A stretch of 64,000 nt of DNA from an uncultured Acidobacteriota bacterium (GCA_963722765.1 CAVROO010000023.1:22726-86725); one strand, 5' to 3'. Shown: positions 9,553-63,020, numbered from the stretch's first letter. The notes: a model not told the origin generated them from the letters alone. Made by a program: numbers and translations.

Positions 9553-9569
9553 CTACAACCGCCGGCAGC

Positions 9570-13210: not shown

Positions 13211-13275
13211 CGAGCGGAGAGTTTTTTCGAGGTTGTTGCCATCCAGTTGTTCCTCGCCGCTCAGCAATATCTATA

Positions 13276-43843: not shown

Positions 43844-44074
43844 CTCTACCTCCGTCACGAGCGTGTACGGCATTCTGCACCTGTCTGTCTATCCGGGACA
43901 CAGGCCAGAATTATATACGAGCCCTTCCATAGAGACGTCCAACAAAGTGTGGCAGACAGGAACCGATGTGGCGATTCTGCAACGCGGAGCGGTACGAAAC
44001 AACTCCCCTCACAGGCGCCTATCCATCAGCGCCTCAAATACTTCCTCGAAACGGGTGTGCTAATATCCAACGCC

Positions 44075-44920
44075 ATGGTTTCGGAACGTGAATTGCAGTC
44101 GGCAGGAAATGCAAAGGAGTTCGAATCGGAGGTGGCCAAGGCGACTCGAGAACTGGAGGAAAAGAACCGTGAGCTACGTCGGCTGAACGAGGAGCTTTAC
44201 TACATTCAGCGACGATTGGCTCGAATGGAACGACTCTCCGCAGCACAGCATGTCGCGGCGCGGTTCGCCCACAAGATCGGAACGCCCCTCAATCTCATCT
44301 CGGGACATATACAAGTTCTTCTGCAAGGCCGCAAAGAGGACGAGCCTCTTTCAGAAAAACTGCAATTGATACAATCTCAAATCGGGAAACTCGAAACGAT
44401 CGTTCGGGAAATAATGGATGAGACACGCAAGACCGATTCTCGAGCTCGAGTCCTTCGATTTGACCCGACTGCTCGACCGGATTTGCGCGCTCGTGGAGCC
44501 CACCTTCGCCGGCCGGGGGATTCCGGTCGACAGGAAGTTCGCCAGCCGATCCGCTCACGATTCTCGGGGACGAGGCACAACTCGAGCAAGTGTTTCTCAA
44601 TCTCTTCAACAACAGCCTTGGACGCCATGCCGGAAGGAGGCACACTTACAGTTCGGACGGAACCAAGCGAAGAAGGTGTTCGGGTCGAGCTCGTAGATTC
44701 CGGCGAGGGAATGACGGAAAGCGCTCTTTCTCAGATGTTCCGGCCCTTCTTCACGACGAAGGAAATGGGACGCGGGACGGGACTCGGTCTATCCATCGTC
44801 AAGGAAATTCTCAGCGCTCACGGCGCGACCATCGATGCAGAAAGTGAGCTCGGACAAGGCACCACGTTTAAGCTCGTGTTTCCTGTGGGGAACAGACGAT
44901 ACGGAGGTATCAGGAAATGA
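44075..44920 (+). CDS. Short cytoplasmic sensor histidine kinase (coiled coil + HisKA + HATPase_c, no sensor domain), three frame breaks as assembled
   Basis: H-box RFAHKIGTPLNLISGH, N-box QVFLNLFNNSLDAM, and DSGEGM and GTGLGLSIV. The reading frame switches near 44430, 44540 and 44622. Confidence 0.75.
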   Translation: MVSERELQSAGNAKEFESEVAKATRELEEKNRELRRLNEELYYIQRRLARMERLSAAQHVAARFAHKIGTPLNLISGHIQVLLQGRKEDEPLSEKLQLIQSQIGKLETIVREIMDETRKTDSRARVLRFDPTARPDLRARGAHLRRPGDSGRQEVRQPIRSRFSGTRHNSSKCFSISSTTALDAMPEGGTLTVRTEPSEEGVRVELVDSGEGMTESALSQMFRPFFTTKEMGRGTGLGLSIVKEILSAHGATIDAESELGQGTTFKLVFPVGNRRYGGIRK

Positions 44921-46293
44921 CTCGGCTCCTAGTAGCTGACGACGACCCCTTGACCTGTGATTTCTTCAAGGAGATCCTCCAAGAGCTTCCGCTCGAGATT
45001 CGACCTGTCTCGACCCTAGAAAAGCTGTTATTCTCGCAACGGAAGATCGTTTCGATGTCGTCATCAGCGACATCAACTTCGAGCAGGCAACGACCGGCAT
45101 CGACGTGCTGCGGGCCATCAAGAAGGCGCAGCCCGAAACTCAGGTGATTCTGGTGAGCGGTTTCGGAAGCCTCGACACCGCAATCGCCGCCGTTCGGGAG
45201 GGCGCTTTCGACTACGTCAGCAAGCCCTTCAATGTGGAGGAAGTTCAGGCCACGGTCCGCCGAGCCCTGGAAAAGCGAAAAGTCGGGCTGGCCGTTCAAG
45301 GACATGAAGGTGCTGCGGGAGAGGAGCCGATTCTGATCGGCTCGAGCGCCAAGATGCTGGCGGTCTACAAGACCATAGCCTATGTAGCCGACTCGAGAAC
45401 GACGGTACTCATACAAGGTGACAGTGGTACCGGAAAAGAGCTCGTGGCGCGTGCGATCCACGCCAAGGGCCCTCGTAGCTCGAAACCCTTCATCGCAGTC
45501 AACTGCGGAGCTCTGACCGAGACCCTGCTTGAAAGTGAGTTGTTCGGTCACTGTGAAGGGGTCGTTCACGGGTGCGGTAGCGGACAAACACGGCCTTTTC
45601 CATGCCGCCCAGGGAGGGACTCTCTTTCTGGACGAGATCAGTGAGACCAGCCCGGCACTCCAGGTCAAGCTGCTGCGGGTCCTTCAGCAGGATGAGTACA
45701 CTCCGGTGGGAAGCACGAAAGTCGCTCAAAACCGACGCTCGCGTCATCGCGGCAACCAATCGGGACCTCGAGAAAAGGGTCGACGCGGGCCTTTTCCGTG
45801 AAGACCTTTTCTACCGGCTGAACGTTGTCACCATCGAGGTTCCTTCGCTTCGCGAGCGCCGGGAAGACATCCCCAAGCTCATTGCCTATTTCATACGGCG
45901 ACTGGCCTCCAAGGGACAAACGGCGCCTCAATTCTCCTCCAAGAGCGCTCGAGATTCTGGTGCGATACCCCTGGCCGGGCAACGTTCGGGAGCTGGAGAA
46001 CACCATCGAGCGGCTGGCCCTTTTCAGCCGGGGCCGTCTCATCGAGGTCCAGGATCTTCCGGAAAAGATCAGGCAGAAGCAGGTATCCTTAGAGAGCAGA
46101 ATGTTCAAAGAGCTCCCGTCACTGGAGGAAATGGAGCGCCGCTACCTCTTCCACGTGCTGAAGGCGGTGGGAGGAAACCGGAAGACGGGCCGCCGAGGTC
46201 CTGAAAATCGATCGGCGAACGCTATACCGCATGCTCGACCGCTTCGAGCCCATGGACGAAAAAGGGACTCCAGAGGACGAAGTCGGAGCCTGA
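44917..46293 (+). CDS. Sigma-54-dependent response regulator (NtrC family: REC + AAA+ + Fis-type HTH), about five frame breaks as assembled
   Basis: [19 protein letters not shown] (REC), GDSGTGKE (Walker A), GSFTGA (GAFTGA variant), GGTLFLDEI and RRTLYRML (HTH). Breaks near 45020 (A4 run), 45548, 45718, 45925 and 46185. ATGA overlap with the kinase gene. Confidence 0.85.
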
Positions 46294-46493
46294 TGCGGGG
46301 CCTGTCCGCCGTGTGGCATTTTGCCCCAACGAGCGAGAACCTTGCCCCAAAAACGGATACCGCCCGCAAACGGCAAACGACGGCACAACCGCCCCACCGC
46401 ACCATTCCATAGGCGCCACGACCATCCTCGACCTCGATTCTTAAAGCACGGTAAACGTTGAACGTAGCCGACTCGTTCAGTCAGAGTCAAAGC

Positions 46494-46507
46494 GGCACAG
46501 GTCTTGC
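46494..46507 (+). promoter_or_regulatory. Sigma-54 (-24/-12) promoter candidate 200 nt downstream of the NtrC-like gene
   Basis: cGGCAC-aggtc-TTGCg with correct GG-N10-GC spacing. A GGGGGT Shine-Dalgarno-like element and the ATG at 46539 follow. Confidence 0.45.
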
Positions 46508-46538
46508 GATGACCTAAGCGATTGGGGGTATCAGAACT

Positions 46539-46622
46539 ATGCGCAAGATCGGCGTAGGGCTTACAACAATTCTTCTTTTCCTCCTCCCATTGGGATTCGG
46601 GCAATCCGATATGGAGACTTGA
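46539..46622 (+). CDS. 27-codon orphan ORF that is essentially only a signal peptide (MRKIGVGLTTILLFLLPLGFGQSDMET)
   Basis: ATG has a Shine-Dalgarno-like GGGGGT 10 nt upstream and lies directly behind the sigma-54 element. It could be a truncated gene remnant or part of an sRNA. Confidence 0.25.
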   Translation: MRKIGVGLTTILLFLLPLGFGQSDMET

Positions 46623-46687
46623 TCGACCTGGAGGACCGTGTGGGTCGAAGTGACTACTTGAACCGTGTTCTGGGGAACATCATCAAG

Positions 46688-47670
46688 TTATTGTCCCCAG
46701 CGGGCTCGAAATCCCCTCACATCCACGTGGACAAAGGGGCCGTGGGCAGTCGTTTTCCGGTACCTTCCCAAACCGCCCGTAAAGGGCGCATAGAAAGGTC
46801 TCCCGAACAGATCATCAACAATGTCGTAGACGACGGCGGCATCACGGAAATCAATCACTCCATCCTGGTTGAGGTCATCCATCATCGCGTCTTTGGGATT
46901 TTCGTCCACGAAGATATCGGCCGCACCTCCCCATACGTGTCGGCTGTAGCGCACGTTTCCGATGGCCTTGTTGTAGTAGGGCGTGCGGTAGCCGCTCATG
47001 ATGTGGAAGGTGTCACAGCGATATCCGCGCTCGTTCGTCCGTTCCAGGATGAGTTCGAGCTTCAGTAGGAGCCTCTCCTTCAACACAAGATAGACGGGAT
47101 ATCCGCCTTCCTGCTTGCACAAAAATTGCCGGAGAACAAAATGGGGGGAGATCTCCGTGTTCTGATTCCTCTCGGTGACCTCGATGAAGCCGAGCGGGGT
47201 TTGTAGATGGACAACCCCTTCAACGGATTTTTAGGATAGGCACCAATCCGGTACCCGTTGATGTACTCGCCTTTTAGCTCGTCGAACGGCACAAGAACGA
47301 AAACGGTGAAGTGCATCACTTCACCCGTCCCTTGATGATGGATTTCCAACGGGTAGACGCCCTTTTCAACGGGAGCCTTCCAAAGCCAGACGCACGGTCC
47401 CTGGCGGGTCACGAACCCCGACTCCGCGCGCATCTCGAAGCGAGCCGAGTCGCCGCTACCGATAGCTTCGAAGCGATGTTCCTCGCCGGGCAGAACGAAG
47501 ATCCCCATGATCCGATAAGGTGAGATCTCGTCCTTGAACTTCACCGAGAAACCCACTCGCCCGGTTGAAAAAGGCTCGCGAGCCGCCGGTCGAGCGAAGA
47601 TCCCGGGACGATCCAAACCGGCAGAAAAAACGCCCAGGAAACCGATGACGAGTAATTTGCGCCGGAGCAA
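46688..47670 (-). CDS. Peptidase M15A / DUF882 (YcbK/MepK-like) metallopeptidase, frameshifted as assembled near 47198 (G4/C4 run)
   Basis: Signal peptide MLRRKLLVIGFLGVFSAG. ..IYKP / PLGFIEVTERNQNTEISPHFVLRQFLCKQEGG joins the two ORFs. Zn-site pattern SGYRTP...SRHVWGGAADI...HVDVR. Confidence 0.75.
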
Positions 47671-47671
47671 C

Positions 47672-49380
47672 TTATTCCCTCGACGGAGGCTTGTCTTTCA
47701 AAGCTTCGTCCAAGAGTCGATCGCGGCCGTAAACGTCATTTCTGAAATGGATGGTTCCTGCCTGGTCAACCCAGCTCGTCCAATAGAGGAGATGCACTGG
47801 AATAGGTCGAGGCAGCCGAACGGTTTGTTCCATACCTTTCTGCGAAGCGGCAGTAATGTTCTCGGGGCTCCAACCGGCGGCCTCGCGCAGGAGATACTCC
47901 GCCAGCTCGAGAGGCTTCTCAATCCGGATACAACCGGAGCTGAACGTGCGCTCCGTCCTCCGGAACAACTCTCGGGAGGGCGTATCGTGGAGATAAACGT
48001 TGTAAGGATTGGGAAACATGAACTTCACTCCACCCAAGGCGTTATCCGGACCGGGTTCTTGACGAAATCGATAAGGAAAGCCTTCTCGTTTCAAGCTCGA
48101 CCAGTCAACCGCCGCCGGGTCAACCTCCTCGGCCTCCGAGCCCCAGCCGCGAAATACTTTGATGCTCTTCTTCGCCAGATAGTCTCCTTCTTTCTGAACC
48201 GCGGGAAGGACGTCTTGAACGGCAAGACTCGGCGGAACATGCCAGTACGGACTGAATACGAGATAGGTCATGGGGGAGCTGAACACCGGGGTTCGCCGAT
48301 ACGGTCTCCCAACAACAACCCGCATCGCCAGCACCATCCTTCCACCTTCGATGACTTCGAGATCGAAGCCGGGGATGTTGACAAGAATGTAGCTCTCACC
48401 CAAATCGAGAGGTAGCCATCGCCATCGCTCAAGATTCAGCTCGAGTTGCCGGACACGATCTCCCGCCGAAACGTTGAGGGCCGCCAACGTACCCTTGCCT
48501 ACCACACCGTCGGTATCGAGTCCGTGACGCCGCTGAAATCTTTTCACCGCCTCTTTTACGTCGGCATCAAACCGCACCGGTACCTCGGATGTTGCCGGGG
48601 CCAAATCCCCTGATGCTTCGAGCCGGCGGCGCAGGACGGTTACACGGTCATCCCGGTCGTCGAGCTGCAGCTTGGGTCCGTCCGCGAATCCGAGTCCAGC
48701 CACCTTCCCCGGCGAGGTTTCGATAACCGGCGAGCGCCTCCTTCATCCTCGAATATCCGTCGTCTCTCGGAAGCAGGCCACTCAAGGCTTCCGAGATATT
48801 GCCCGAGTCGAGAGCCGATTCGAGCAGACTGACAAAGTCCGCCTCTTTCGATTCGACGACGTGCCATTCGGTATCGAAAGTCGTGGGATTCACGCGGCCG
48901 GAGAGCAGATGGGAAGCGTAAACGATGAAGCCGTCCGTCAGCAACAAGTCGAGATCGACCAGACGTCGAGGGTCGATAGGTTTACCCGTCCGTGCGTCGA
49001 GCTCGATTTCACCCAACGTTGTGTCTATCTTGGCCAGGTGGTAGACGCTTGGATCCATGCCCTCCTGTTCGGCGTTGCGTAACGCTTGCAGCAAACGCAC
49101 CGCTCGAGGAAGGGCTCCTTGGTCGGCACTCCATGCGGGCTGGTAAAGACGTTGTTGATAAAAGAGAGGTAGGAATCGTGAGGCGTAGATCGCCTCTCCA
49201 CCCACCTCGATTCGATGCAGAGCTCCGGCCGCCTCGATTCGATTGCGTATGGACTCGGCGACTCGTTCTGCTTGGGAGGCTGCAGAAAGGGCGGGAACGA
49301 GAGATCGAATAGAGCATCCAAGCTCTCAAAATAAAACAAAGCTTCAAAGTCCCGCCCACGCCCGAGCCACTATTGCCCAT
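47672..49380 (-). CDS. L,D-transpeptidase of the YcbB/LdtD type (PG-binding + YkuD domains), two frame breaks as assembled (near 48685 and 49300)
   Basis: VKRFQRRHGLDTDGVVGKGTLAALNV is PG_binding_1. LHDTPSRELF...FSSGCIRI is the YkuD catalytic Cys. The N-terminal part sits in ORF 48648..49205. The start near 49380 is approximate. Confidence 0.8.
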
Positions 49381-49409
49381 CTCACGAACCGTTACAGCAC
49401 CAATCGACT

Positions 49410-49830
49410 TCAGGAAGATTCCCCTTCCGCAGCCCACGTCAAGAGTCCGGGCATAAACGGAGTGGCCAGGTCGGGGTGGTTGGGCAAGACACGAAAGGTA
49501 TATCCGTGCAGCCCACTTCGCTTGCAACGGACTCCTCGTGACTCGAAGGTGTGATTTCCTTCGTTATCGGACTCGGTCCTGTGCATGGTCGCCGCCTGGG
49601 CGCTCACAAATTCACCATCCGAGCTCAGGAGCCCGAAGAAGAGTTGTACCGAGACGGCCGCGGGGCCGAGATCACCAAGCTGGACGCGCGCACGAACCTG
49701 TATCTCATCTCCAACGGAAAGCTCGGCCTTCGCATGGTCACCTGAATCCACCGGCCCCAAACGGATCCGATTCCAAGATTCTCGGACGCCACGCTTCCAA
49801 GTCGCAAGGGCCCTGGCTCCGCTATCAAAT
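49410..49830 (-). pseudogene. Alpha-glucan phosphorylase (GlgP-type), C-terminal about 140-codon remnant only
   Basis: ..LATWKRGVRESWNRIRLGPVD..VGDEIQVRARVQLGDLGPAAVSVQLFFG...SGLHGYTFRVLPNHPDL..PGLLTW matches the tail domain of a protein of about 850 aa. The frame opens right after a TAA and no upstream part exists. Confidence 0.55.
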
Positions 49831-49883: not shown

Positions 49884-50474
49884 TCAAGCCGCCTCTCCCG
49901 ACCGCCTCGTCCGGCTCGGATGGAGTTTCTTACTCAATGCGAGGATTCTATCCTCCAATTGCCACTGGATCCTGAATCCCCGTCTTTGCGCCATCTCGAT
50001 TACCTGTCGGTTGTCGGGAGTCGTTACGGCAACGATCTCTTTCACGCCCCCGCGGCACACCACGTCCAGACAATAGTCCGCCAGCGCACTGCCGAGTCCC
50101 AGGCCTTGCCAGCGATCCGCGACGAGAACGGCCACCTCTACCGATCGTTGGAGCGTTTCGGCCGCCAGGTCGCCGAAGCCGATCAGTTTTTTCGTTCCCT
50201 CAGATTCGATCTCGGCCACTATCACTTTCTCATGTTTGCCTTCGACGTCACAGAACCTCGATGCCAGCTCGCCCAGGCGCTTGGTCACATAGTGGAAGCG
50301 GCGATAGAGCGATGTGGGAGAACAGGACTCCAAAAGCTCCTGCAGCAGAAGTTGATCTTCCGGTTGCACCCCTCTCAACACAACAGACGTACCGTCCCTT
50401 AGCCGGGCGGTAACGGGACCTGACCCGACCGCCGAATCCAGGGGCGTCATCGATTTGTGGGAGGTCTGGGTCAT
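49884..50474 (-). CDS. GNAT-family N-acetyltransferase (Pat-type stand-alone domain)
   Basis: LRGVQPEDQLLLQELLESCSPTSLYRRF and the acetyl-CoA site RWQGLGLGSALA. The start lies 4 nt after the upstream gene's stop. Confidence 0.8.
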   Translation of the reverse strand: MTQTSHKSMTPLDSAVGSGPVTARLRDGTSVVLRGVQPEDQLLLQELLESCSPTSLYRRFHYVTKRLGELASRFCDVEGKHEKVIVAEIESEGTKKLIGFGDLAAETLQRSVEVAVLVADRWQGLGLGSALADYCLDVVCRGGVKEIVAVTTPDNRQVIEMAQRRGFRIQWQLEDRILALSKKLHPSRTRRSGEAA

Positions 50475-50478
50475 GTAT

Positions 50479-51048
50479 CTATTTCTTTTTCAACACCGCT
50501 CTCCATCCACTGGGATGCGGAAAGGGGGTGAAGTGGCTCGTCTCCGAGAAACGATCCACCACGCAGAAAACGTTCGGATCGACATCCCTCGCCGCTCGAA
50601 TGGCTTCCGGCAGGTGTCAACGTGCCATGGTAGCGAAGACCAACCGGCTGCGGGAGCCGTTGACCTCACTTTGAAAGACGCCGAGCACGCGGCCGAAAAA
50701 GGAAAGCGGCTCGACGATTGCTTTCCCCTTCGCCGAGATCATGCGAACCACGCACTGTCCGAAAGCGAGCCTTCGCTCGAGGACAATCCCGACTGCATTG
50801 CCGGCGGCGAAACCGGCGGCATAGGCAACGACGAGCACAGGGTGCTCACGGACTCTCAGAATCACCTGGGAGATGGACGTCATCCACAACAAGACCTCGA
50901 AGAAACCGAGAGCCACGGACAGACGTAGTCTTCCGTTGACGACCATAATAGTACGCATCGTGCCCAAAGACACATCGACCACCCTCAGTACAAAGATGAG
51001 TCCCGCCAACGCCCACACCGGCAGCCCGTTATCGAGGAATGATCCCAT
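50479..51048 (-). CDS. UPF0316/DUF2179-family small membrane protein, interrupted by an in-frame TGA (50617-50619)
   Basis: LIFVLRVVDVSLGTMRTIMVVNGR...GFFEVLLWMTSISQVI is typical of the family. After ..ATMAR-TGA the same frame continues as HLPEAIRAARDVDPNVFCVVDRFSETSHF, a DUF2179-like end, to the TAG at 50479. Confidence 0.7.
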
Positions 51049-51049
51049 T

Positions 51050-52125
51050 TCACGATCCTTCCTTCGGAAGACCACCGAGTCCGGGAGCCTCTTTGGGATA
51101 GAGGTAGCCTCTCTTGAGAACCACCGCCCCCGCGAAGAGGTCGCCCTCCAAATCGAGATGGCCGTCGAGATCGGCGTAAACGACATTGGGCCGGGCGAGG
51201 GCGTAGTGGAGCCCAGCCGCAATGGCCAGCGCCGATTCGTCCATGCAGCCCACCATGACCTCCAAGCGAGCGGCAAGGGCGACGGCATTGATTTGGAGCG
51301 CCTCGTCGATACCGCCCACTTTCATGAGCTTCACATTGACCATGTCGGCGAAATCCCGACGCGCCAAAGAGAAAGCGTCGCGCAGGCTCATCAGGCTTTC
51401 ATCCGCCATAACGGGTATGGCGAGTGGCGGCGACCACGCGCCCCATCAGATCGGGTTGGTTGCGCGGCGTCGGCTGCTCGAGGATCTCGACTTTCGCCGA
51501 TTTGGTTCGGCGCACAGAACTCGATAGCTTCCGAGGCGGAATAGCCTTGGTTGGCGTCGCACCGAAGCGCCACGCCCGCGCCTATCACCTCCCGAACACG
51601 AAAAACCCGGTCAATGTCCTCCTCGAGGTTACTTCCAGTCTTGATCTTGACGGCGCGAAAGCCCTCCTGCACAAACTGTCTGGCACGCGCGGCCGTTTCG
51701 TCCACACCCATGATACCGATGGTGATGCTGGTCAGGATGCGGTCTCGATACCCACCCAACACTCTCCACAAGGGTTGACCGGCCGCCTTGCCGAGAAGAT
51801 CGTGAAGCGCCATGTCTACGGCCGCACGGGCGGAAGGCCGGTCGGGGATCTTTTGCTTCAACTTCACAAGTAGACGTAGACGTCGAAGCGGATCGGCGCC
51901 TTCGAGTAGAGGAGTGGCCACCTCGCGGAGCGCGGCGAGGACATCGGACGCCTTCTCGCCGGTGACGGGCTCGTCGGGAGCCGCACATCCGTAGGCGACG
52001 AGTCCCGTGTTGGTTTCCAGGCGGATGAAAACATTGGTCGTTTTCTCGACCGTCTCGTAAGCAATGGTATAAGGTTCCCGTAGACGCATCTCCCACGGCC
52101 AGATCTCGATTCGATTGATTCGCAT
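51050..52125 (-). CDS. Enolase-superfamily dipeptide / N-acylamino-acid epimerase (L-Ala-D/L-Glu epimerase-like), two frame breaks as assembled (near 51495 and 51420)
   Basis: FRAVKIKTG (KxK), [14 protein letters not shown] in the shifted frame, [16 protein letters not shown] and YADLDGHL together make up the complete catalytic set of the family. Confidence 0.85.
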
Positions 52126-52126
52126 T

Positions 52127-54481
52127 TTAAAAACGCCTCTGGTAGATCTCGTCGAGGGTCATACTCTTGAGAGATTCCACCAGCTCTACGAGATGGCGGA
52201 TCATGACCTCCCACATCTTCTCACCCTTGGACCGGCTGGCGCAGGTCGGGTCTCCGAAGACGCCACTGGGCGTGATTCTCGCCGTGCGTGCGTACCAGCC
52301 GACCCCTCGTAGGGACGCGAGATCGAGATACCGGCTCGAAAACTTGGGAACGAACTTCTCGGCCCGCTCCATTCGCACCAACTCCGGTCTCACCGCGAGC
52401 GCCGTGGACGTTTCGATGTCACCGGCATGAACGTCGTTGGGGACTTCGGACATGGCAGCAATGTCTGCATCGGAGGTCTCGCCGGTGTCCACACAGGTGA
52501 AGATATGAGCGTCGCGGTTGATCATCTGAGCGGCGAAATGAAGCGCCGGTTCATTGCCTCCGTGGCCGTTGATGATGACCAGTTTGGTGATTCCGTGCTG
52601 TGCGACGCTCATTCCGATTTCATAAACGAGTTTCGACAACGTTTCGGGGCCGATACTCACCGTGCCGCTGAAGTCATCGTGGGCGTAAGAGACACCGTAA
52701 GGAATGAGCGGCAATACCAGGGGCTTCGGATTCGAGCACGAGGCCGCCACTTGTTTCGCGAGGTAGTCGGCATCGAACGCATCGGTATCGAGGGGCAGAT
52801 GGGGTCCGTGCTGCTCGATAGAACCCACCGGCAGCAAGGCCAAGTCCACTTGCTTGAAACGGTGCTCGGCTTCCGGCCAGGTCAGCTCGGCCAACAAGAA
52901 TCGATGCGACAAGCTCTTATCCTCCGCAGCAGCAGCGTCGTCACAGGTTTCGAACCGATAAGGTAGGTCCGCATCGGGGTCTTCGAGCGGATCGGTCTCG
53001 ACCCACAACCGTCCGACGTGCTTGACGGCGCCTTCGGTATGTTCCATCAGAATCCTATACAAGGGAACCCGAAGATCCATGGGAATCGCATTCATGGGCG
53101 AACGCTGGCGGTCGAATCGGAGCTTGAGCACTTCCGGTTGCGCCTCGGCTTTGACCTTACCAAGACGAGGGCGATCGATCTTTCCCTGGCTGTAAAGTAG
53201 ATGCCCCAGATGGCGGACCGCCGGCAGCTCCTGATGTACGCCCTTTTCTACGAGGCTCTTCAGGCAGTACTCCATTTGCTTGTCGCTGAAACCACAGTCT
53301 TTAGGATCCTTGTCGAAAGCGACGAGCATGCCGACGATGCGCCGGCACTTTTCGCACTTGCCGCAGGGACGGACCTTGTCGTTTTCCACGTGGGTCGCGT
53401 GGCAAGAGGTCTGCAATCTCAACAATTCGGGATAGCGCGAAGCGAGAGTCTTCTGGATGAGCATCTCCGACATGGGCCGGAGCAACGAGAACTGGTTGAT
53501 GCCCCAGCCCTTCCTTCGAAAGTAGCTGCTCATGGTCTCATCGAAATATCGACTCTGGTCGTAAAGGCCGTTGTAATGCGTGATCCCCCGGAACGTCGTT
53601 CTTTCCGTCGTGTCGTACTCATCCCCCAGCAGCAGACGACCCACGCCGCGTTGTTTAAGGAGCGGTAAGGCCCCGAAAAGGAAAACCGCTACAGTCCAGA
53701 GTCGGATGGGATACTCGTCGGATCGCACTTCGGCGAAATCCTCTCGGACGAAAGGAAGATGGCGAAGCATCCAAGAAAAGACCCGATCGGAGTTGGTCCA
53801 AACGCGAGCCGTATGGGGAATCTCACGCGTGAAGTACCGATAGGCATTGAGAGCGGTGAACCAGTGACGGCCCGACTCGTTCAGGAACACGGGGTGTGTC
53901 TCCCAGCCCATCTCGCGTAACAACCCGAAGGTCAAAAGACTATCTTTCCCACCGCTGGACAAAACGGCGTGCTTCTCCGTCGAGGCCGCCCAAGGTTTCA
54001 GCCGCTTGTCCTTCGTTTCCGGAAACACGAGCTCCGCCCGAAGGTAGTTCTTCCTACGCTCCGGAGGGAGGCCTGCCGCCTCTCCAACGAGGAAAGGATT
54101 GGGCTCGAGGAACTTCTTGACATAAATCTCCCGTGCCGTGTTCTTGGCCATTTCCAGAAGGAACGCCCGGTCCGCTTTGTCGAAGGTCCCGTGAAAAACA
54201 ATCGTCCGGGAGAAAAGGCCGTAGTTGAGAGCCAACTGAGCGGCGATCATGCCGGCCAGATTCGCGTCTCCCAAATCTTCCGGGTCGAAAACCGGCTCCT
54301 CGTATTTGTACGCGAGCTCCGTGGTGAACGTACCTTTCGTGGTAGTGACCTGGTAGGCAACGGCAAAACGATCGGGCTTCAGACGGACCGGTCCGACCTC
54401 GAGACGATCTATCGCAAGGAGCGGATTGGACTCGTCCAAGTCACGAATGTCCTCTATCAATTCAGTCTGTTTCTCGTTCAT
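52127..54481 (-). CDS. Fusion protein: unknown N-terminal domain + PP-loop ATP pyrophosphatase-like domain (QueC-like Cys cluster) + creatininase-family amidohydrolase
   Basis: 784 aa, intact. SGGKDS at aa 176-181, PCGKCEKCRR at aa 372-381. The creatininase-like C-terminus from about aa 527 has LLPVGSIEQHGPHLPLDTD, IINGHGGN and VHAGDIETS. Confidence 0.75.
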   Translation of the reverse strand: MNEKQTELIEDIRDLDESNPLLAIDRLEVGPVRLKPDRFAVAYQVTTTKGTFTTELAYKYEEPVFDPEDLGDANLAGMIAAQLALNYGLFSRTIVFHGTFDKADRAFLLEMAKNTAREIYVKKFLEPNPFLVGEAAGLPPERRKNYLRAELVFPETKDKRLKPWAASTEKHAVLSSGGKDSLLTFGLLREMGWETHPVFLNESGRHWFTALNAYRYFTREIPHTARVWTNSDRVFSWMLRHLPFVREDFAEVRSDEYPIRLWTVAVFLFGALPLLKQRGVGRLLLGDEYDTTERTTFRGITHYNGLYDQSRYFDETMSSYFRRKGWGINQFSLLRPMSEMLIQKTLASRYPELLRLQTSCHATHVENDKVRPCGKCEKCRRIVGMLVAFDKDPKDCGFSDKQMEYCLKSLVEKGVHQELPAVRHLGHLLYSQGKIDRPRLGKVKAEAQPEVLKLRFDRQRSPMNAIPMDLRVPLYRILMEHTEGAVKHVGRLWVETDPLEDPDADLPYRFETCDDAAAAEDKSLSHRFLLAELTWPEAEHRFKQVDLALLPVGSIEQHGPHLPLDTDAFDADYLAKQVAASCSNPKPLVLPLIPYGVSYAHDDFSGTVSIGPETLSKLVYEIGMSVAQHGITKLVIINGHGGNEPALHFAAQMINRDAHIFTCVDTGETSDADIAAMSEVPNDVHAGDIETSTALAVRPELVRMERAEKFVPKFSSRYLDLASLRGVGWYARTARITPSGVFGDPTCASRSKGEKMWEVMIRHLVELVESLKSMTLDEIYQRRF

Positions 54482-55569
54482 GCGCTTCTTCTCGAACGTT
54501 TAATCTCGGCGATGATCTCGCGGACGATTTCTCCCGGACCGTCGAGCAAAACGTCGGTTGTAGGTAGGTCTATCTGAGAGTTAATGGCACTACAGACCCG
54601 TCTTACCTTCTCCATAGGTATCCCCTCATGATTCACGGCGATGGCAACGACCGGCCGACCCGATATAAGCTCGACGGCCTGAATCTGGGTGGGCAGTCCA
54701 TGAAGCTTGTAACCGGGGAACCCGTCGTATTCCTTGCGGGCCGGGGCATGCTGGAGCACCACCGCGTCCGGCCTCCCGGCGGCCAGGATTTCGAATCCAC
54801 CCGGATAAGCCGGATTCAGTAGACTGCCTTGACCTTCGATCACGATAATGTCGGGTTGCGCCTCTTTCCAAGCGCTCCAGATGACGTGCTCGATCTCTCC
54901 CGCAACAAAGTCGTTGACCAGGCTGTCCAAAACGATCGAGTAACGGGCCCCTTGCAGCCAGGCGGTCTGACCGGTCCCAACCATCTCCGCGGTGAAACCG
55001 GTCTCTCGAAATCCTTCAACCAATCGCCAGGCCGTCGTTCGTTTTCCCACTGCCGAGTCCGTTCCCAGAACGGCGACCTTGAACGACCGAACTTCTTCGA
55101 TCTTTCCGCTGAAGAAATGGAGACCCGAGACCGGCGGTGGTCTACGGATATCTCTCAACTGCACTTGGTGAGCGCGGGCCAGCTCAACCAGCGCCGGGTC
55201 GTCACTCAGGTAGTCGTGAAGACCGCAATCGACATGGAGGCCCAGACGAATAGCAACTCCGATGTCTTCTTTGGCCCAGGACGGAAGACGGCCTCCGTCG
55301 GGAGCCAAACCGACAACGAGATGGGTCGCCGGCGCTCCGCCACGCCGAGCTTTCTCAACCGCCACCCCGATTTCGGAAAAAATCGGAATAGCCGATGGCC
55401 GGCCGTCGAGCACCTCGCCTGCGTCGCGACCCGCGCAGGCCGAGTCCACCACCGAGAGGACTTTGTAACGCTTCGTAAAACGCACCAGCCCGTGAGCGGT
55501 TTTACCGTTCGTGGTGTTGAAAGCCTTTTCGCAATAGACGATGGCATTGCCTTCCTCTACTTCTTTCAT
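54478..55569 (-). CDS. DUF1611-family P-loop protein (DgcN-like)
   Basis: 363 aa, intact. GTDSAVGKRTT P-loop, IVIEGQGSL, and the general DUF1611 layout. ATGA overlaps at both ends. Confidence 0.8.
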   Translation of the reverse strand: MKEVEEGNAIVYCEKAFNTTNGKTAHGLVRFTKRYKVLSVVDSACAGRDAGEVLDGRPSAIPIFSEIGVAVEKARRGGAPATHLVVGLAPDGGRLPSWAKEDIGVAIRLGLHVDCGLHDYLSDDPALVELARAHQVQLRDIRRPPPVSGLHFFSGKIEEVRSFKVAVLGTDSAVGKRTTAWRLVEGFRETGFTAEMVGTGQTAWLQGARYSIVLDSLVNDFVAGEIEHVIWSAWKEAQPDIIVIEGQGSLLNPAYPGGFEILAAGRPDAVVLQHAPARKEYDGFPGYKLHGLPTQIQAVELISGRPVVAIAVNHEGIPMEKVRRVCSAINSQIDLPTTDVLLDGPGEIVREIIAEIKRSRRSA

Positions 55570-56777
55570 GTTCGTCTCCCTGTGAGTACGGCTACGTAGC
55601 GATCGGGCGCCAAGGGCTCACTTTGATGCCGTTCTAAAAAGGCCTGAAGTCCGGCGGTTGAAGCGGGTAGGATGCTAAGCCCTTCCGAATCACGCAGCTT
55701 TTTCGATACCGCCAGCATGTTCTTGTCGCTGGCATAGGCGGCCCAACCGTTCGTCTGCTTGACCGCGTCGAGGCAGATGTTACCGTCGATGGAATGCCAG
55801 TTCACCAGCGGTTCGTTGATGGGAGTTTCTTTGATGCTTCTCGGCGCAAGATCCTCGCAGCGATCCAGTTTTTTCAGAAAAGAACTGACAATCGGATTTT
55901 TGCCGTAAGAGGAGCCCGCCACCATTTTCGGCATGCGGGACGTCTTGCCGCGACGGTAAAGACTCTGGAAGCCGCGGTGGATTCCCGCAAGGGTGGTGCC
56001 GTTGGAAACAGGTACCGCCACTACCGCCGGAGCATCCCTGAGCTCATCGTAGATTTCAAAAGCGATTTGACCGTAGGCTTGAAGCTGCAGAACCGTGTTG
56101 GCGCCGCCCGGATTGGCATCGTAGAGCTCGTCTTTTTGCGCGCGCCGACAGCTCTCCTCGACGGCGCTCTCATAGTCGCCCTTCACACGGACGATTTCGG
56201 CGCCTTGGGATTCCATCTCCTGGATCCGCCGGGTTTGAAAGGCTTCCGGAATATAGACGAGGCATCGAAGACCCGCCGTAGCCGCGGCGAAGGACATGGC
56301 GGCGCCGAAGTTGCCGCAGGTCGCCACGGTCACTGTGTCAAAGCCACGCCGTAGCGCGTCCATAGCTTGAGCGAAAGCGATACGGTCTTTCTGCGTTCCG
56401 GTGGGATTTCCACCCTCGAACTTGAGGTAGAGCTGCCTTAGGCCTACCTCACGCTCGATGTTTCTCGCCCGAGACAGGTTGGTGTCGCCGACTTCGGAGT
56501 CGAAAATGTCCTCGTAGGCTTCCAGACGCTCGGTTAGAGGTAAGGTCGCGTCGGAGGCAATCTTCCGCTGTCGCTCCTTATCAGGAGCAAGGATAGGATC
56601 ATGAGAAGTTGCGCCGTTCAGCAGCGGCCGAACGTTTTCCGTATCTCCAACCGTTTGTTCATGCCCGATAGGGTCCAAGGGTCGCTCCTTAATGAATGAG
56701 TCTCCGTTCATTCTCCGGCCGCATAAAGGCCATCGACTCTCGTAAGGAGACAGAAAGGGCAAGAAGCGTGCCACCAT
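55566..56777 (-). CDS. PLP-dependent fold-type II enzyme (threonine-synthase / Trp-synthase-beta-like)
   Basis: LKFEGGNPTGTQKDR (PLP lysine), ATCGNFGAA, and VPVSNGTTLAG (phosphate loop). The start is uncertain: ATG 56777 or ATG 56711. Confidence 0.75.
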   Translation of the reverse strand: MVARFLPFLSPYESRWPLCGRRMNGDSFIKERPLDPIGHEQTVGDTENVRPLLNGATSHDPILAPDKERQRKIASDATLPLTERLEAYEDIFDSEVGDTNLSRARNIEREVGLRQLYLKFEGGNPTGTQKDRIAFAQAMDALRRGFDTVTVATCGNFGAAMSFAAATAGLRCLVYIPEAFQTRRIQEMESQGAEIVRVKGDYESAVEESCRRAQKDELYDANPGGANTVLQLQAYGQIAFEIYDELRDAPAVVAVPVSNGTTLAGIHRGFQSLYRRGKTSRMPKMVAGSSYGKNPIVSSFLKKLDRCEDLAPRSIKETPINEPLVNWHSIDGNICLDAVKQTNGWAAYASDKNMLAVSKKLRDSEGLSILPASTAGLQAFLERHQSEPLAPDRYVAVLTGRRT

Positions 56778-57341: not shown

Positions 57342-59591
57342 GTGTCCATTGAAGTTCGATTGAGCCGCGAGATGAAGCTCATGGACATCACCATGATCGG
57401 CGTTGGGGCCATGATTGGTGCAGGGATTTTCGTTCTCACAGGTATCGCCGCCGGCGTGGCCGGACCGGCACTGCTTCTCGTCTTTCTGCTCAATGGGGTC
57501 GTTGCACTTCTAACCGCGACGGCCTATGCGGAGCTCGGTAGCGCCATCCATGGTGCCGGCGGTGGCTATCTCTGGATCAAAAGGTCACTCCCCGATCCGA
57601 GCGGCTTCCTCGCCGGATGGATGGACTGGTTCGCCCATGCCGTAGCCTGCTCACTCTACGCTCTGGGATTCGGCGCCTATTTCCGGTTGGTGCTCGAGTT
57701 CCTCAACATCCCCGAGCTCTCGGTCGGATTCATGGGACTCGAGAAATGGTTGGCCGTTGTTTGCGTTGCCCTTTTCTCCTATATCAACTTCAGCGGGGCA
57801 TCGGAGACAGGCAAAGCCGGCAACGTCGTTACGATAGGAAAAGTCGCCATCATCGGCGCCTTCATCGTAGCCGGCCTTTGGACTGTTGCAAATCGTCCGG
57901 GCTGGCAGGTCTCCTTCAAGCCGTTTCTGGCGAACGGTTGGGGCGGCGTCTTTGCCGCCATGGGGCTCACTTTCATCGCTTTCGAAGGCTACGAGATCAT
58001 CGCCCAGACCAGCGAGGAAGTGCAGAACCCGAGGCGGAACGTGCCGAGGGCCGTTTTTCTTTCACTGTTGATCGTCGTCCCCATCTATCTCTTAGTGGCC
58101 TTTGTCGCGATCGGGGCGGTGACCCCGATCGAAGGACTCAGCGTGACGGAGTACTTGGCGCAAGAGAAGGAGATTGCGCTGGTATCGGCGGCCGACCAAT
58201 TCGTGGTCGGTGGCGGCCTCGTCATCTTGGTGGGCGGGCTTTTGTCTACGCTTTCGGCATTGAACGCTACCATCTACTCCTCCTCACGAGTGGCCTTTGC
58301 CATGGCCCGTGACGCCAGTCTCCCGCAGTGGATCGGCCGCGTTCACCGCCGGCGTCTCACTCCGCACATCGCCATTTTTTTCTCTGCACTCATCGTCATT
58401 ACCATGGCCATTACCCTTCCCATCGAAGAGGTGGCCGCGGCAGCGGACATCATGTTTCTGCTGCTCTTCGCCGGGGTGAACATCGCTCTCATCCGCCTGA
58501 GGAAACTACGTCCCGATCTCGACCGCGGCTTCCGAGTACCCTGGGTACCCTTTACACCAATACTGGCCATTATCACCATGCTCTTCCTCGCCGTCTTCTT
58601 GTTCTTCCACTACCCCATGGCCTGGGTGGCCGCCGGCGGCTGGATCGGCGTCGGTTGTCTCGTTTATTACAAATACAGCCATCGACGGGAGGTGGCTTTC
58701 GTCGAGCGAGAGAAGTGGATGGAGCGGATCGAGCGGAAAGAATATCGCGTCCTGGTCGCCGTCTCGAGTCCGCGGAGCGTGGAATCTCTCATGGAAGCCG
58801 CTTTGCCGCTGGCCCGTAGCCACCAGGGCGAGCTCGTCGTGGTTTCGGTCGCCGAGGTGCCGGAGGGCGAAAGTCTCATGCGTGAACGCCCGTTGAACCG
58901 CGAGCTCGAAGAGGTCTTGCAGCAGGCCGTCCGGCTCGCCGAGGAACGCGGCATCAAAGCACGACCCGTGGTCAAGATCGGGCACCGGATCAGCCATTCG
59001 CTGGTTCAAACCGCCCGGGAGGAAGCCTGTAATTTCCTCATTATCGGTCAGCCCACGAGCCAATCTTTTTTCGAGCGTATCGTCGCGACGATCGTCGAAC
59101 GAGTTCTGGAAGATGCGCCTTGTCGAGTGGGCGTCGTTTACGGCACCCTTCGCCGCGATGGGATTCGGGGGATCGCATTGCCCGTAACCCGGGGCATGAA
59201 CTCCAAGCTGGCAGCCTCGCTGGCTCCCGCCTATGCCGATTGGTTTGGTGCGAAAACCCGTCCCGTCACGATTGTCGAACGGGAAACAAACGAAGAAGAG
59301 GCCCAAAAACATACTGCCGAAGCGGAAATGACCCTGAGAGAAGTCGGACTCGAAGAATCTCTCCAAGTCTTACGTCGGCGCGACGTCGGTCAGGGACTAT
59401 CCGGTGCCGTCAGGATGGGCGAGCTGGTCCTCATCGGAGCGCCGAGCTCAGGGCCGGTGGCGCCGCTTCTGGGGGAGACCATCCCCTCGTTGATGGCCAA
59501 ACGAGGCCGTACACCCGTCATGGTGGTGCGCGATGTGGAGGAGCGGCGAGCTCGTCGCTTCGAGCGTGTCTTCTTCTCAAGCAACAAGTAG
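57342..59591 (+). CDS. APC-superfamily amino acid permease fused to two C-terminal universal stress protein (Usp) domains
   Basis: 749 aa, intact. ITMIGVGAMIGAGIFVLTG and about 12 TM helices, then two Usp-like units (YRVLVAVSSPRS..., IALPVTRGMNSKLA...VMVVRD). Confidence 0.85.
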   Translation: MSIEVRLSREMKLMDITMIGVGAMIGAGIFVLTGIAAGVAGPALLLVFLLNGVVALLTATAYAELGSAIHGAGGGYLWIKRSLPDPSGFLAGWMDWFAHAVACSLYALGFGAYFRLVLEFLNIPELSVGFMGLEKWLAVVCVALFSYINFSGASETGKAGNVVTIGKVAIIGAFIVAGLWTVANRPGWQVSFKPFLANGWGGVFAAMGLTFIAFEGYEIIAQTSEEVQNPRRNVPRAVFLSLLIVVPIYLLVAFVAIGAVTPIEGLSVTEYLAQEKEIALVSAADQFVVGGGLVILVGGLLSTLSALNATIYSSSRVAFAMARDASLPQWIGRVHRRRLTPHIAIFFSALIVITMAITLPIEEVAAAADIMFLLLFAGVNIALIRLRKLRPDLDRGFRVPWVPFTPILAIITMLFLAVFLFFHYPMAWVAAGGWIGVGCLVYYKYSHRREVAFVEREKWMERIERKEYRVLVAVSSPRSVESLMEAALPLARSHQGELVVVSVAEVPEGESLMRERPLNRELEEVLQQAVRLAEERGIKARPVVKIGHRISHSLVQTAREEACNFLIIGQPTSQSFFERIVATIVERVLEDAPCRVGVVYGTLRRDGIRGIALPVTRGMNSKLAASLAPAYADWFGAKTRPVTIVERETNEEEAQKHTAEAEMTLREVGLEESLQVLRRRDVGQGLSGAVRMGELVLIGAPSSGPVAPLLGETIPSLMAKRGRTPVMVVRDVEERRARRFERVFFSSNK

Positions 59592-59597
59592 GCGCTT

Positions 59598-60281
59598 ATG
59601 CAACAACAACCATCGGGTCCGCTTGCCGAGCTCGGGCTAAAATTCGTCGGCTACCTACCCACCTTGGCGGGCGGTCTGTTCGTAGTGGCCCTCGGCTTGG
59701 CCGTTGGCTGGATCGTGAAACGCGCCGTGATCCGGGTCCTGATCTGGCTACGGCTCGATCGCCTCGGGGGACGACTCGGTTGGCGGGCCGCCTTCGGCAA
59801 GGGCGATGTCCGTGGCGCGCTTTACAACGTCGCGGGTTCAGCAGCCGCGGTGGTGGTGGTTCTCGTCTTTCTCGACAACGCTCTTCAGATATGGGGACTC
59901 ACCGTCCTTTCCCGCTTGCTCGAGAGCTTTCTCATTTACCTGCCCAACCTCGCGATGGTCGCCCTCATTGCCGGAGCCGGCTTGGTCCTTTCCAATGCCG
60001 CGGCCAACGGTGTCGAACGTGCTCTAGAGGAGGAGGATTTTGCACGCGGGCGACTGGTGGCGAAGGTGTGTAAGGCGGCTCTGCTCTCGGTGGTCAGTGC
60101 TCTGGCACTCTGGCAGCTCAACTTCGCAAGGGAAATCGTTTTGTCCGCGTTCCTCATCATTTTCGGTGCTGTAGGTGTTGCGTTTGCCGTGGCCGTCGGG
60201 CTGGGCTCGGCCAAAGCCATCGAGCGTGGCTGGCAGGCCCTATTTGGAAATCGAGAAGATGACCAGAACCGAAACGGATGA
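59598..60281 (+). CDS. Membrane protein with repeated conserved-TM-helix units (CmpX / mechanosensitive-channel-associated type)
   Basis: 227 aa with 4-5 hydrophobic helices, each followed by short basic loops. Family assignment comes from the overall pattern only. Confidence 0.5.
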   Translation: MQQQPSGPLAELGLKFVGYLPTLAGGLFVVALGLAVGWIVKRAVIRVLIWLRLDRLGGRLGWRAAFGKGDVRGALYNVAGSAAAVVVVLVFLDNALQIWGLTVLSRLLESFLIYLPNLAMVALIAGAGLVLSNAAANGVERALEEEDFARGRLVAKVCKAALLSVVSALALWQLNFAREIVLSAFLIIFGAVGVAFAVAVGLGSAKAIERGWQALFGNREDDQNRNG

Positions 60282-60705: not shown

Positions 60706-61914
60706 ATGGATGAATCGAAGTTGAGTGCACAAACGAATCTAAAGCGGAACCCGGCAAGTTGGAGCGGCAGCCGGTCAAGAAGTTCGGCACCTTCCTAGGG
60801 GTTTTCACTCCCTCCGTACTGACGATCCTCGGGCTCATCATGTACCTGCGCTTCGGATGGGCGGTTGGAAACGTCGGTTTGCCCTTGACTCTTTTGATCG
60901 TGCTGCTCTCGAGCTCGGTCACTTTCCTGACGGCGCTCAGCGCCTCGGCCTTGGCAACGAATATGCGCGTGGGCGGCGGCGGAGAGTACTACATGTTCGC
61001 CCACAGCTTGGGGTTGGAGCTGGGTGGTGCGATCGGGATTCCGCTGTTTCTTTGTCGAACGTTGAGCATTACCTTTTACTCCTATGGTTTGTCGGAATCG
61101 ATCTTGTGGCTGTGGCCTTCCGAATGGGGTGCGGTTCCGGAGTCTGCCGTTCCGTTGATTGCCGCCATCACGGTTATCACCACAGCCATGGTTGCCGGCA
61201 AGAGCGCGGAGCTGACGCTCAAGCTCCAGATCCCCATCATGATTGCGGTCGGGGTCTCCCTCCTCGCGATGATCGGCGGCGTCTTGAGCGGTCCTACGCA
61301 CACGCCGGAGTTGGTGGCCACTTATCGGACGGCACCCGAAGGTTTTTGGTACGTATTGTCCATCTTCTTTCCTGCCGTCACCGGTTTCACGGCCGGCATC
61401 GGTTTGAGTGGAGACCTGAAAGACCCAAGGCAATCCATTCCCGTTGGAACACTTTTGGCCGTCGTGGTTGGCACTCTCGTTTATCTGTCCGTGCCGACCT
61501 TTCTCTCCCTTACCGGGCGCGTCAGCATGGAAGAGTCGGCAATGCCTGGTGTCGGCGTTTGGACCTCCGTGGCCGTTTTGGGAGCTTGGTTGGTCTTCCC
61601 CGGCATGTGGGGCCATTGCTCGAAATGAACAAGAGCACGAGACTCAGGCCAAGAACCTGGCGGCTCTTCCTGGGGAGGTCCGTACTGGAGCCAGTACGGA
61701 TATCATCATGGCGCGTTCAGAGCATAGCATCCGGGACGTCATCCACGAGCACAGTGCCCGAGCCGACGTGGTCTTTCTCGGACTGCAAGAACCTCGCCCC
61801 GGCACCGAGTCCCGCTACGCACGATGGCTGGAAGAGATGGTCGAGGGGCTCAACACCACGGTTTTCGTGCGCAATGCCAGCGAGTTCGCCGGGAAGTTGA
61901 TCTCGCGAATGTAG
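60706..61914 (+). pseudogene. Cation:chloride cotransporter-like (SLC12/APC) gene with a frame break near 60750 and an internal deletion near 61615
   Basis: KKFGTFLGVFTPSVLTILGLIMYLRFGWAVG to ..FPGMWGAI covers about 7 TMs. It then jumps directly into the extreme C-terminal tail (..DVIHEHSARADVVFLGLQEP...VFVRNASEF). Roughly half the protein is missing. Confidence 0.65.
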
Positions 61915-62732: not shown

Positions 62733-62995
62733 TTCTCCTCGGGCCGATCGACCCCGAATCGAGCGGCCTTGTGTCTCCTGCTCGCTCGCAATAGATAGCC
62801 ACCCAGAATTCCTGCAAACGCTCCCATTACGAATGTGCCCAACAGAACCAGGATTCTCGACAAGGTAAGACTCCAAAACAGAAGTTGGATCGTCACGATT
62901 TCCGCGTTCTGAAATGCGATGATGATCATCAACCCGGCGAGAATCACTACGAAAGCTACCCTTGCGTTTTTCAAAATATCACCGGCCATATTCAT
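62729..62995 (-). CDS. LapA-domain (DUF1049) small inner-membrane protein
   Basis: 88 aa with two TM helices and the typical ..IQLLFWSLTLSRILVLLGTFVMGA.. core. AAGGGGCGAGG Shine-Dalgarno before the ATG at 62995. Confidence 0.6.
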   Translation of the reverse strand: MNMAGDILKNARVAFVVILAGLMIIIAFQNAEIVTIQLLFWSLTLSRILVLLGTFVMGAFAGILGGYLLRASRRHKAARFGVDRPEEK

Positions 62996-63020
62996 CCTCG
63001 CCCCTTTTCGGGAAAAGTCT

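Follow-up and report, generated by a model that had tools for sequence, protein, structure and literature searches.

A widespread bacterial cassette joining a PP-loop domain, a creatininase-family hydrolase and a dipeptide epimerase, with a possible role in D-amino-acid chemistry

Introduction

What might a ThrC-like pyridoxal 5'-phosphate (PLP) enzyme, a DUF1611 protein, an ATP-dependent activating domain fused to an amidohydrolase and an enolase-type epimerase make, or break down, together? The question is raised by a 64,000-nucleotide stretch of DNA from an uncultured Acidobacteriota bacterium (GCA_963722765.1, CAVROO010000023.1:22726-86725; the whole stretch is called the window here), in which open reading frame (ORF) calling places six ORFs, all on the minus strand, at positions 49884-56777. 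A sequence-only reading had described the region as a six-gene operon of unassigned function. Comparison of the window with 22 related loci indicates that the conserved unit is four genes, or five where the fusion is split, and not six. As a tentative answer, it is proposed that these enzymes would epimerise, activate with ATP and trim an amino-acid derivative carried on a dipeptide handle.

Results

Four genes form the conserved unit

The 784-aa fusion protein has thousands of homologues, and its PP-loop family is small, with 629 representatives at E <=1e-3 among 1.84 billion proteins. Among the 23 loci compared, window included, the complete order PLP enzyme-DUF1611-PP-loop-creatininase-enolase is present in 19, and three more are interrupted by contig ends in a manner consistent with it, so the order is kept in 22/23. 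The single deviating locus (L011) has the PP-loop gene and then a permease. The loci examined span at least six phyla (Acidobacteriota/Aminicenantes, Krumholzibacteriota, Bacteroidota, Calditrichota, Desulfobacterota and Gemmatimonadota), their named sources being Aminicenantes, Krumholzibacteriales, Calditrichaeota, Desulfobacteraceae, Desulfobacula, Gemmatimonadota, Chitinophagales and Flavobacteriaceae. Intact copies are carried by the cultured Lutibacter citreus and by Prolixibacteraceae bacterium Z1-6. The five L. citreus genes span 6870-12368 of locus L087, which corresponds to ~118.0-123.5 kb of QEIH01000001.1 (GCA_003260195.1), reverse strand. Marinimicrobia, Saccharicrinis and Draconibacterium enter only through named PP-loop homologues, outside the loci compared. 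The proteins are 46-74% identical to those of the window, the five parts varying jointly from locus to locus. Conservation of the core order at this level, in many phyla, is more than chance. Cross-genome neighbourhood comparison, which the sequence-only reading had itself proposed, thus found the families together beyond this contig.

The remaining genes do not belong to the unit. A DUF5698 gene occurs in or near the cluster in 4/23 loci (the window, L001, L084 and L086) and a GNAT gene in two (the window and L001); both are lineage-specific accessory genes. The murein-peptide genes downstream, LdtD and M15A, to which a functional connection had been suggested, are found in none of the 22 other loci, and in L001 their place is held by glycogen phosphorylase; the suggested connection fails. 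Because none of these genes is conserved, the six-gene unit gives way to a core of the ThrC-like PLP enzyme, DUF1611, PP-loop plus creatininase, and dipeptide epimerase. Apart from sigma-54 regulators of a generic kind and an APC permease, all-against-all clustering of flanking ORFs from 16 loci brought out no additional conserved partner.

The two halves of the fusion also occur apart. In L013, L014 and L087-L089 the PP-loop (~503 aa) and creatininase (266 aa) domains are encoded by separate overlapping or abutting genes, and in L006 by separate, spaced genes, the split form being seen in Bacteroidota and Calditrichota. This pattern of fusion and fission points to consecutive steps or to a complex. 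In a single representative, P0127 (855 aa), DUF1611 is fused ahead of the PP-loop domain; a frameshift spanning the ATGA overlap could have created this fusion artificially, and if real it would be a second Rosetta-stone link.

A QueC-fold, MurL-like domain precedes a creatininase-family hydrolase

No Pfam family matches the PP-loop domain significantly, the best being QueC at E 0.0011, in six of 13 members. The MurL model NF041275 is the single NCBIfam match common to all 13 (best E 9e-10), other NCBIfam matches having E >=0.07 and occurring in at most two members each. Scores lie far beneath the MurL cut-off of 700 bits, at 31.5 for the window protein and 37.9 for a distant relative, P0262; a 457-aa relative extends the MurL match into the PP-loop region. 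A sequence search of solved structures with the fusion returned creatininases only, plus PP-loop matches at E ~0.5, so assignment of the domain needed structure prediction. The AlphaFold2 (AF2) model (predicted local distance difference test score 82) gave Foldseek matches to QatC (best), QueC, TtuA, MnmA and, lower down, Cap9, with template modelling scores of 0.61-0.71, normalised by target, for the QueC structures 2pg3 and 3bl5. The SGGKDS motif and the four cysteines listed in Table 1 are invariant among aligned family members. The features of a QueC-like PP-loop ATPase (SGGxDS, a four-Cys site and the QueC fold) are therefore all found, and the PP-loop label of the sequence-only reading can be refined to a QueC-fold, MurL-like domain. 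A stand-alone paralogue, P0132 (523 aa), may lack catalytic activity: its PP-loop is degenerate, with ESGTND in place of SGGKDS, and several other conserved positions have been lost.

The C-terminal domain (residues 531-768) scores 244 bits against Pfam PF02633, for which the gathering threshold is 31.3, and PDB creatininases match it at 1e-20 to 1e-23. E556, H558, D567, H640, H685 and E690 are invariant in 22 sequences, and we take them to correspond to the creatininase metal ligands; score and putative metal-binding residues together place the domain in the Creatininase family. It falls slightly short of the MftE model TIGR03964 (166.4 bits, cut-off 172) and well short of the creatininase equivalog (105 bits, cut-off 235). 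In public records (NCBI, JGI) the fusion appears as 'creatininase family' and the PP-loop protein as 'hypothetical'.

The epimerase keeps the dipeptide clamp and has Glu at the Arg24 position

In the window the epimerase gene is disrupted, as described below, and its intact orthologue in L001 matches the dipeptide epimerases 3rit, 3jva and 1jpm at 1e-66 to 1e-69. Alignment to YkfB (1jpm) shows that the features of a dipeptide epimerase are kept (the KxK motif, the second Lys, three metal ligands and the DxD motif), and the equivalents of YkfB K162/K268 and of the ammonium-binding D321/D323 are invariant in 16 orthologues. In YkfB, Arg24 binds the carboxylate of the substrate Glu (10.1101/2022.05.01.490185). 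This position is Glu in all 16 orthologues, which therefore lack the Arg24 of L-Ala-D/L-Glu epimerases (AEE). The AEE models NF041118 and NF011708 also fail to reach their cut-offs, and two fragments of the window gene score 64.3 and 62.4 bits against DgcA (NF042940, cut-off 400).

Since an invariant Glu replaces the Glu-binding Arg24, L-Ala-D/L-Glu is an unlikely substrate, and the retained DxD ammonium clamp would call for a free N-terminus rather than an N-acetyl group. Taken together, the conserved residues point to a dipeptide with a free N-terminus and a C-terminal residue other than Glu. The candidates put forward by the sequence-only reading (D-Glu, N-acetyl-Glu and L-Ala-D/L-Glu) are thereby disfavoured. 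A basic or polar C-terminal residue is a natural guess; 3rit is said to bind cationic dipeptides, which serves as a hint only.

The PLP enzyme is doubtful as a threonine synthase

The first gene product exceeds the cut-off of one curated model only, the 'threonine synthase' NF004996/PRK06381 (427.9 bits, cut-off 266), and its best PDB matches are threonine synthases (~1e-25). It fails TIGR00260 thrC, with 109.7 bits against a cut-off of 167.1. Relative to Thermus ThrC, Lys61, Asn87 and Asn154 are kept, while Arg160 and Thr88, which presumably bind phosphate, are replaced by Gln and Phe; the Gln varies within the family and is not invariant. Given the failed thrC model and these replacements, annotation of the first gene as threonine synthase appears doubtful.

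The DUF1611 protein is DgcN-like but scores only 150.9 bits against DgcN (NF041892), for which the equivalog cut-off is 480, and its PDB matches are 2g0t, 2obn and 7xrj.

Operon layout and a candidate promoter

The five start/stop junctions have spacings of -4, -4, +1, +1 and +4 nt. The DNA bears out each junction previously reported, namely ATGA overlaps at 55566-55569 and 54478-54481, TAA-A-ATG at 52123-52129, TGA-A-ATG at 51046-51052 and TAG plus 4 nt plus ATG at 50472-50481, and with overlapping or near-abutting stop and start codons on one strand the genes form a predicted translationally coupled operon (Table 1). In line with the accompanying remark that there is no room for internal promoters, sigma-70-like promoter and terminator matches within the operon do not exceed the shuffled expectation.

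Table 1. Predicted features of the cassette region, in order of transcription (window positions)
Feature	Position	Strand	Basis
Sigma-54-type promoter element (candidate), TGGCAC-N5-TTGC, upstream of first gene	56759-56773	-	Perfect core match
ThrC-family fold-type II PLP enzyme, 370 aa from the most likely start, TTG 56678; longest ORF to 56777	55566-56678	-	PALP 1.2e-54
DUF1611 protein, Rossmann-like N domain and P-loop C domain, GTDSAVGKRTT	54478-55569	-	DUF1611 4e-63; DUF1611_N 3e-21
Putative PP-loop adenylating domain, QueC-fold, MurL-like; N-terminal ~505 of 784 aa; SGGKDS, Cys360/373/376/379	52967-54481	-	Structure prediction
Creatininase-family metal amidohydrolase, closest to MftE; C-terminal domain of the fusion	52127-52891	-	Creatininase 1.9e-72
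Enolase-superfamily dipeptide epimerase, disrupted by two +1 insertions	51050-52125	-	MR_MLE_N/C matches over two ORFs
Small membrane protein DUF5698, UPF0316-like, in-frame TGA at 50617-50619	50479-51048	-	DUF5698 5.6e-19
GNAT acetyltransferase	49884-50474	-	Acetyltransf_1 6e-10

The sigma-54 element upstream is the sole promoter candidate for the operon. It lies ~80 nt from the probable TTG start of the first gene and is equally distant in L001 (perfect match) and L084 (one mismatch); sigma-54 activator genes lie within 10 kb of the cassette in 8/23 loci. Translation most likely begins at TTG 56678 and not at ATG 56777, since the start signal AAGGAG-N6-TTG at 56678 is also kept in L001 and ATG 56777 overlaps the sigma-54 element. 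An Rfam scan of the whole window and a permissive scan of the leader region detected no match to a riboswitch or other RNA.

Accessory and neighbouring genes

The PALP, DUF1611, Creatininase, MR_MLE_N/C and GNAT assignments of the sequence-only reading all stand. The membrane protein it called DUF2179 is instead DUF5698, DUF2179 appearing weakly and in one relative, and its 'Pat-type' GNAT is a GNAT that is only weakly Pat-like (43.6 bits, cut-off 460).

Genes for Mg2+ transport (CorA, MgtE, CNNM), MscS-type mechanosensitive channels, a Na/Ca exchanger, SLC12 or APC-Usp proteins lie within 10 kb of the cassette in 9/23 loci, among them Lutibacter/Flavobacteriaceae, a Desulfobacteraceae metagenome-assembled genome (MAG) and a Gemmatimonadota MAG. 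This proximity of transport genes weakly suggests a role for the cassette in ion or osmotic homeostasis. In L. citreus, CorA and an MscS-type channel adjoin the cassette (L087, 12761-14752), and the two are seen again, with a CNNM protein, in a distantly related metagenomic contig (L002, 1-3363).

At 57342-60281 (+) the window encodes an APC permease that ends in a Usp domain and, after it, a small MS_channel_1st_1 protein. The pair is 79% and 66% identical to one in L011, a Gemmatimonadota MAG, where it lies at 11634-14490 directly after the stand-alone PP-loop gene, at the site otherwise taken by creatininase and enolase. In their cassette proteins L011 and the window share only 54-58% identity, which suggests that the pair was transferred separately.

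A triad of genes for an FGase, a MATCAP (DUF1704) metallopeptidase and a RimK/GshB-like ATP-grasp protein adjoins the cassette in four related loci (window 61932-64000 (-), L001 866-4957, L002 3727-7489 and L086 468-4202) and looks like a peptide-ligase/peptidase system in its own right.

Reading-frame defects in this copy

All catalytic motifs quoted in the sequence-only reading are present in the DNA; the accompanying claim that every member is intact fails for two genes, which are broken as written. The enolase gene is read as two ORFs, 51391-52125 and 51050-51409, and its motifs fall in three frames: 0 for KIK and DANQG, 1 for EQP, and 2 for MADES and KLMKVGG. By comparison with L001, a locus of 83% identity, the split results from two +1 single-base insertions near 51516 and 51421, and deletion of both regains a full-length epimerase orthologue. 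In the DUF5698 gene the codon at the in-frame TGA is CGA (Arg) in L001. The window cassette thus has three frame defects, two insertions and one nonsense codon.

Frameshifts within the cassette also occur in L001 (DUF1611), L002 (PALP) and L015 (PP-loop domain), and all affected loci, window included, carry long-read-style 'contig_N' record names. In the remaining loci examined, each gene either gives a single unbroken tblastn match or is called at normal length. The three defects in the window are most likely long-read assembly errors.

Beside the operon, many genes at 43036-49823 are damaged relative to L001. A sigma-54 activator at 44917-46281 has at least five frame changes in 1.4 kb, a nearby histidine kinase is reduced to residues 317-572 and an enoyl-CoA hydratase is split near 43480. 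LdtD is in two pieces, one with the Scaffold domain (48648-49205) and one with PG_binding/YkuD (47672-48703), the M15 peptidase gene is broken at 47080-47122, and GlgP at 49428-49823 comprises only residues 731-862 of 867 aa. The frame changes of the activator and the splits in LdtD, M15 and enoyl-CoA hydratase also speak for assembly error. On the other side, the SLC12-type permease at 60717-61911 (+) is without residues 327-677 of its L001 orthologue, by an internal deletion of ~1 kb or an assembly collapse.

Discussion

A possible handle-based route to a D-configured derivative

The region would be a sigma-54-driven, tightly packed operon built around a four-enzyme cassette. In the pathway that we tentatively favour, the ThrC-family PLP enzyme would, by analogy, supply a non-standard or side-chain-modified L-amino acid, to which the DUF1611 protein may attach an N-terminal aminoacyl 'handle', in analogy to N-acylation by DgcN, giving a dipeptide with a free N-terminus. 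The enolase-type dipeptide epimerase would then invert the C-terminal residue, and the QueC/MurL-like PP-loop domain would adenylate the carboxylate of that residue to yield an amide, by amidation, ligation or cyclisation. Finally, the MftE-like creatininase-family domain would cut the peptide bond of the handle, releasing the D-configured derivative and allowing the handle to be recycled; the fusion of the two activities suggests that activation and cleavage are consecutive steps. ATP consumption would give direction to an otherwise reversible epimerisation. The pathway may end in a small solute, metabolically inert and possibly cationic, with a link to ion or osmotic homeostasis.

The genes, their domains, their conserved catalytic residues, their order and the pattern of fusion and fission are observed directly, and from them we infer every substrate, the step order and the biosynthetic direction. 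The scheme combines three precedents by analogy: DgcN-DgcA for capping, inverting and uncapping, MurL for activation of a C-terminus and MftE for cleavage. An N-acylated or amidated D-amino acid or dipeptide, the class of product suggested from the sequence at the outset, is still reasonable. A narrower form of the proposal is unlikely though worth stating, namely that the cassette would make a previously undescribed D-amino-acid small molecule, such as an amide, a lactam or a D-aminoacyl dipeptide whose side chain is cationic. A new handle logic, with C-terminal activation by a new MurL/QueC-like family, would produce it, and sediment and marine bacteria of many phyla would use it as an inert solute or counter-ion.

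Several observations weigh against this handle pathway. The step order would follow from analogy alone, as would the parts assigned to DUF1611 and the PLP enzyme, and DgcN is an acetyltransferase rather than an aminoacyl ligase. An enolase-type epimerase and a MurL-like domain in one pathway could be redundant. Furthermore, the precedent pathways for both the DUF1611/enolase pair and AEE are catabolic, sigma-54 control of the NtrC type is common for nitrogen catabolism, and the transporter association is seen in a minority of loci, several of them from related lineages. Two features of the local DNA count against the reading of the frame defects as assembly errors, namely that the CGA-to-TGA change in DUF5698 is a substitution and so atypical of indel errors, and that GlgP, the SLC12-type permease and the histidine kinase have large deletions relative to L001.

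These last two features raise the prospect that the copy in the window is a decaying pseudogene array, its pathway inactive here and the family functional elsewhere, since neither a substitution nor large deletions in neighbours are typical indel errors; the two +1 insertions within the operon and the broken sigma-54 activator beside it fit the same account. Against decay, the genes for the PLP enzyme, DUF1611 and the 784-aa fusion, 5.1 kb in all, are frame-clean whereas the activator has at least five frame changes in 1.4 kb, sister long-read contigs are frameshifted in different genes of the same cassette, and the enolase frames are otherwise highly conserved, with 95% amino-acid identity to L001 over residues 236-357. 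Decay of this copy is accordingly regarded as doubtful, if a real prospect, and the same doubtful standing applies to inactivation in this genome whichever functional model is chosen.

Catabolic, peptidoglycan and other readings

An alternative to the handle pathway, close to the salvage idea of the sequence-only reading, is that an imported peptide or lactam containing a D-amino acid, for example one derived from the cell wall, would be epimerised to the all-L form and cleaved by the creatininase-family hydrolase, after which the amino acid would be deaminated or converted by the PLP enzyme. The DgcN-DgcA pair and AEE enzymes are catabolic or recycling (NCBIfam names; PMC10845958), the promoter is of the sigma-54 type with NtrC-type activators nearby, four loci have an APC-family permease with a Usp domain next to the cluster, and LdtD and an M15 peptidase lie downstream in the window. 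That downstream pair is absent from every other locus, no transporter is consistently linked across the 23 loci, the change of Arg24 to Glu disfavours L-Ala-D/L-Glu, and an ATP-consuming adenylating domain beside a ThrC-family, synthase-type enzyme would be unusual in a hydrolytic route. On balance salvage is judged unlikely, although it merits serious consideration.

An alternative route to a peptidoglycan D-amino acid, of the MurD2/MurL kind, appears very improbable. MurL, which epimerises a C-terminal L-Glu of a peptide with ATP, is the only recurrent curated match of the PP-loop domain, but the match is worth ~30-38 bits against a cut-off of 700, Mur ligases are missing from the Pfam-annotated neighbourhoods, and the Glu-binding position of the epimerase is occupied by Glu instead of Arg. 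Equally little can be said for maturation of a mycofactocin-like ribosomal peptide, in which the MftE-like domain would trim a modified C-terminus. The C-terminal domain nearly reaches the MftE cut-off and some homologues are named 'mycofactocin system creatininase' by JGI, but no gene for the radical-SAM protein MftC, for MftB or for a precursor peptide is conserved beside the cluster, and the epimerase active site has a dipeptide-sized architecture. An anti-phage defence module related to QatC/Cap9, suggested by the Foldseek ranking of the PP-loop domain (QatC best, Cap9 lower), is barely credible, as the six proteins give 0 PADLOC matches, the partners are ordinary small-molecule enzymes and the neighbourhoods hold chromosomal housekeeping genes rather than defence islands.

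Significance

With the DgcN, DgcA, AEE, MurL, MftE and creatininase equivalog models all below cut-off, the earlier impression that no named pathway fits is upheld, and literature searches on the gene combination found no publication on this cluster. One of the five catalytic domains is without a Pfam family, and its sole characterised distant relative is MurL, an enzyme of unresolved mechanism. The cassette is widespread in sediment and marine bacteria, cultured strains included, and its chemistry could reveal a new ATP-driven route to derivatives of D-amino acids and perhaps a bacterial solute of a new class. Its study would also set right the 'threonine synthase' label of the first gene, which is likely a systematic misannotation. 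The question is open to direct test in L. citreus and Prolixibacteraceae bacterium Z1-6, whose copies are intact.

Comparison with known systems

The DgcN-DgcA system (PMC10845958) is the precedent for a DUF1611 protein paired with an enolase. Like the cassette, DgcN-DgcA(-DgcH) places a DUF1611 protein, an enolase racemase of the MLE subgroup and an amide hydrolase in one operon, with a cap-invert-uncap logic. We take its members to be, in turn, a DUF1611 N-acetyltransferase, an N-acetyl-Glu racemase and a deacetylase, acting in D-glutamate catabolism. The cassette differs in its low scores (151 of 480 bits for DgcN, ~64 and 62 of 400 for DgcA), in its dipeptide-type DxD clamp and creatininase-family hydrolase, and in having extra PP-loop and ThrC-like enzymes.

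The epimerase shares the catalytic Lys pair, metal ligands and DxD motif of YkfB, YcjG, 3rit and 3jva, at the strong similarity given above; unlike them it has an invariant Glu for Arg24 and misses all AEE cut-offs, and its partners are not murein-peptide peptidases. The top-scoring curated model for the C-terminal domain is MftE, with metal-binding residues conserved, whereas the cassette is below the cut-off, lacks mft genes and fuses the domain to a PP-loop domain. QueC, QatC and Cap9 share the fold, the SGGxDS PP-loop and the four-Cys site of the adenylating domain, and QueC-family chemistry consists of carboxylate adenylation and then attack by a nitrogen nucleophile. In contrast to these proteins, the cassette domain is ~500 rather than ~220 aa long, with extra N- and C-terminal subdomains, gives no significant Pfam QueC match and has a context of neither queuosine nor defence.

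MurL is an ATP-dependent epimerase that has been proposed to adenylate the alpha-carboxylate at the C-terminus of a peptide (PMC8788868). It resembles the cassette domain as a PP-loop-type ATP-dependent enzyme without a Pfam family, for which action on the C-terminal carboxylate of a short peptide is proposed in setting stereochemistry. The cassette domain reaches ~5% of the MurL equivalog cut-off, has no Mur ligase partner, is fused or adjacent to a hydrolase, and is accompanied by a separate enolase epimerase. It is unlikely, though a real prospect, that chemistry and product are both new; the cassette itself is a variation on the known cap-epimerise-uncap and MurL-type logic.

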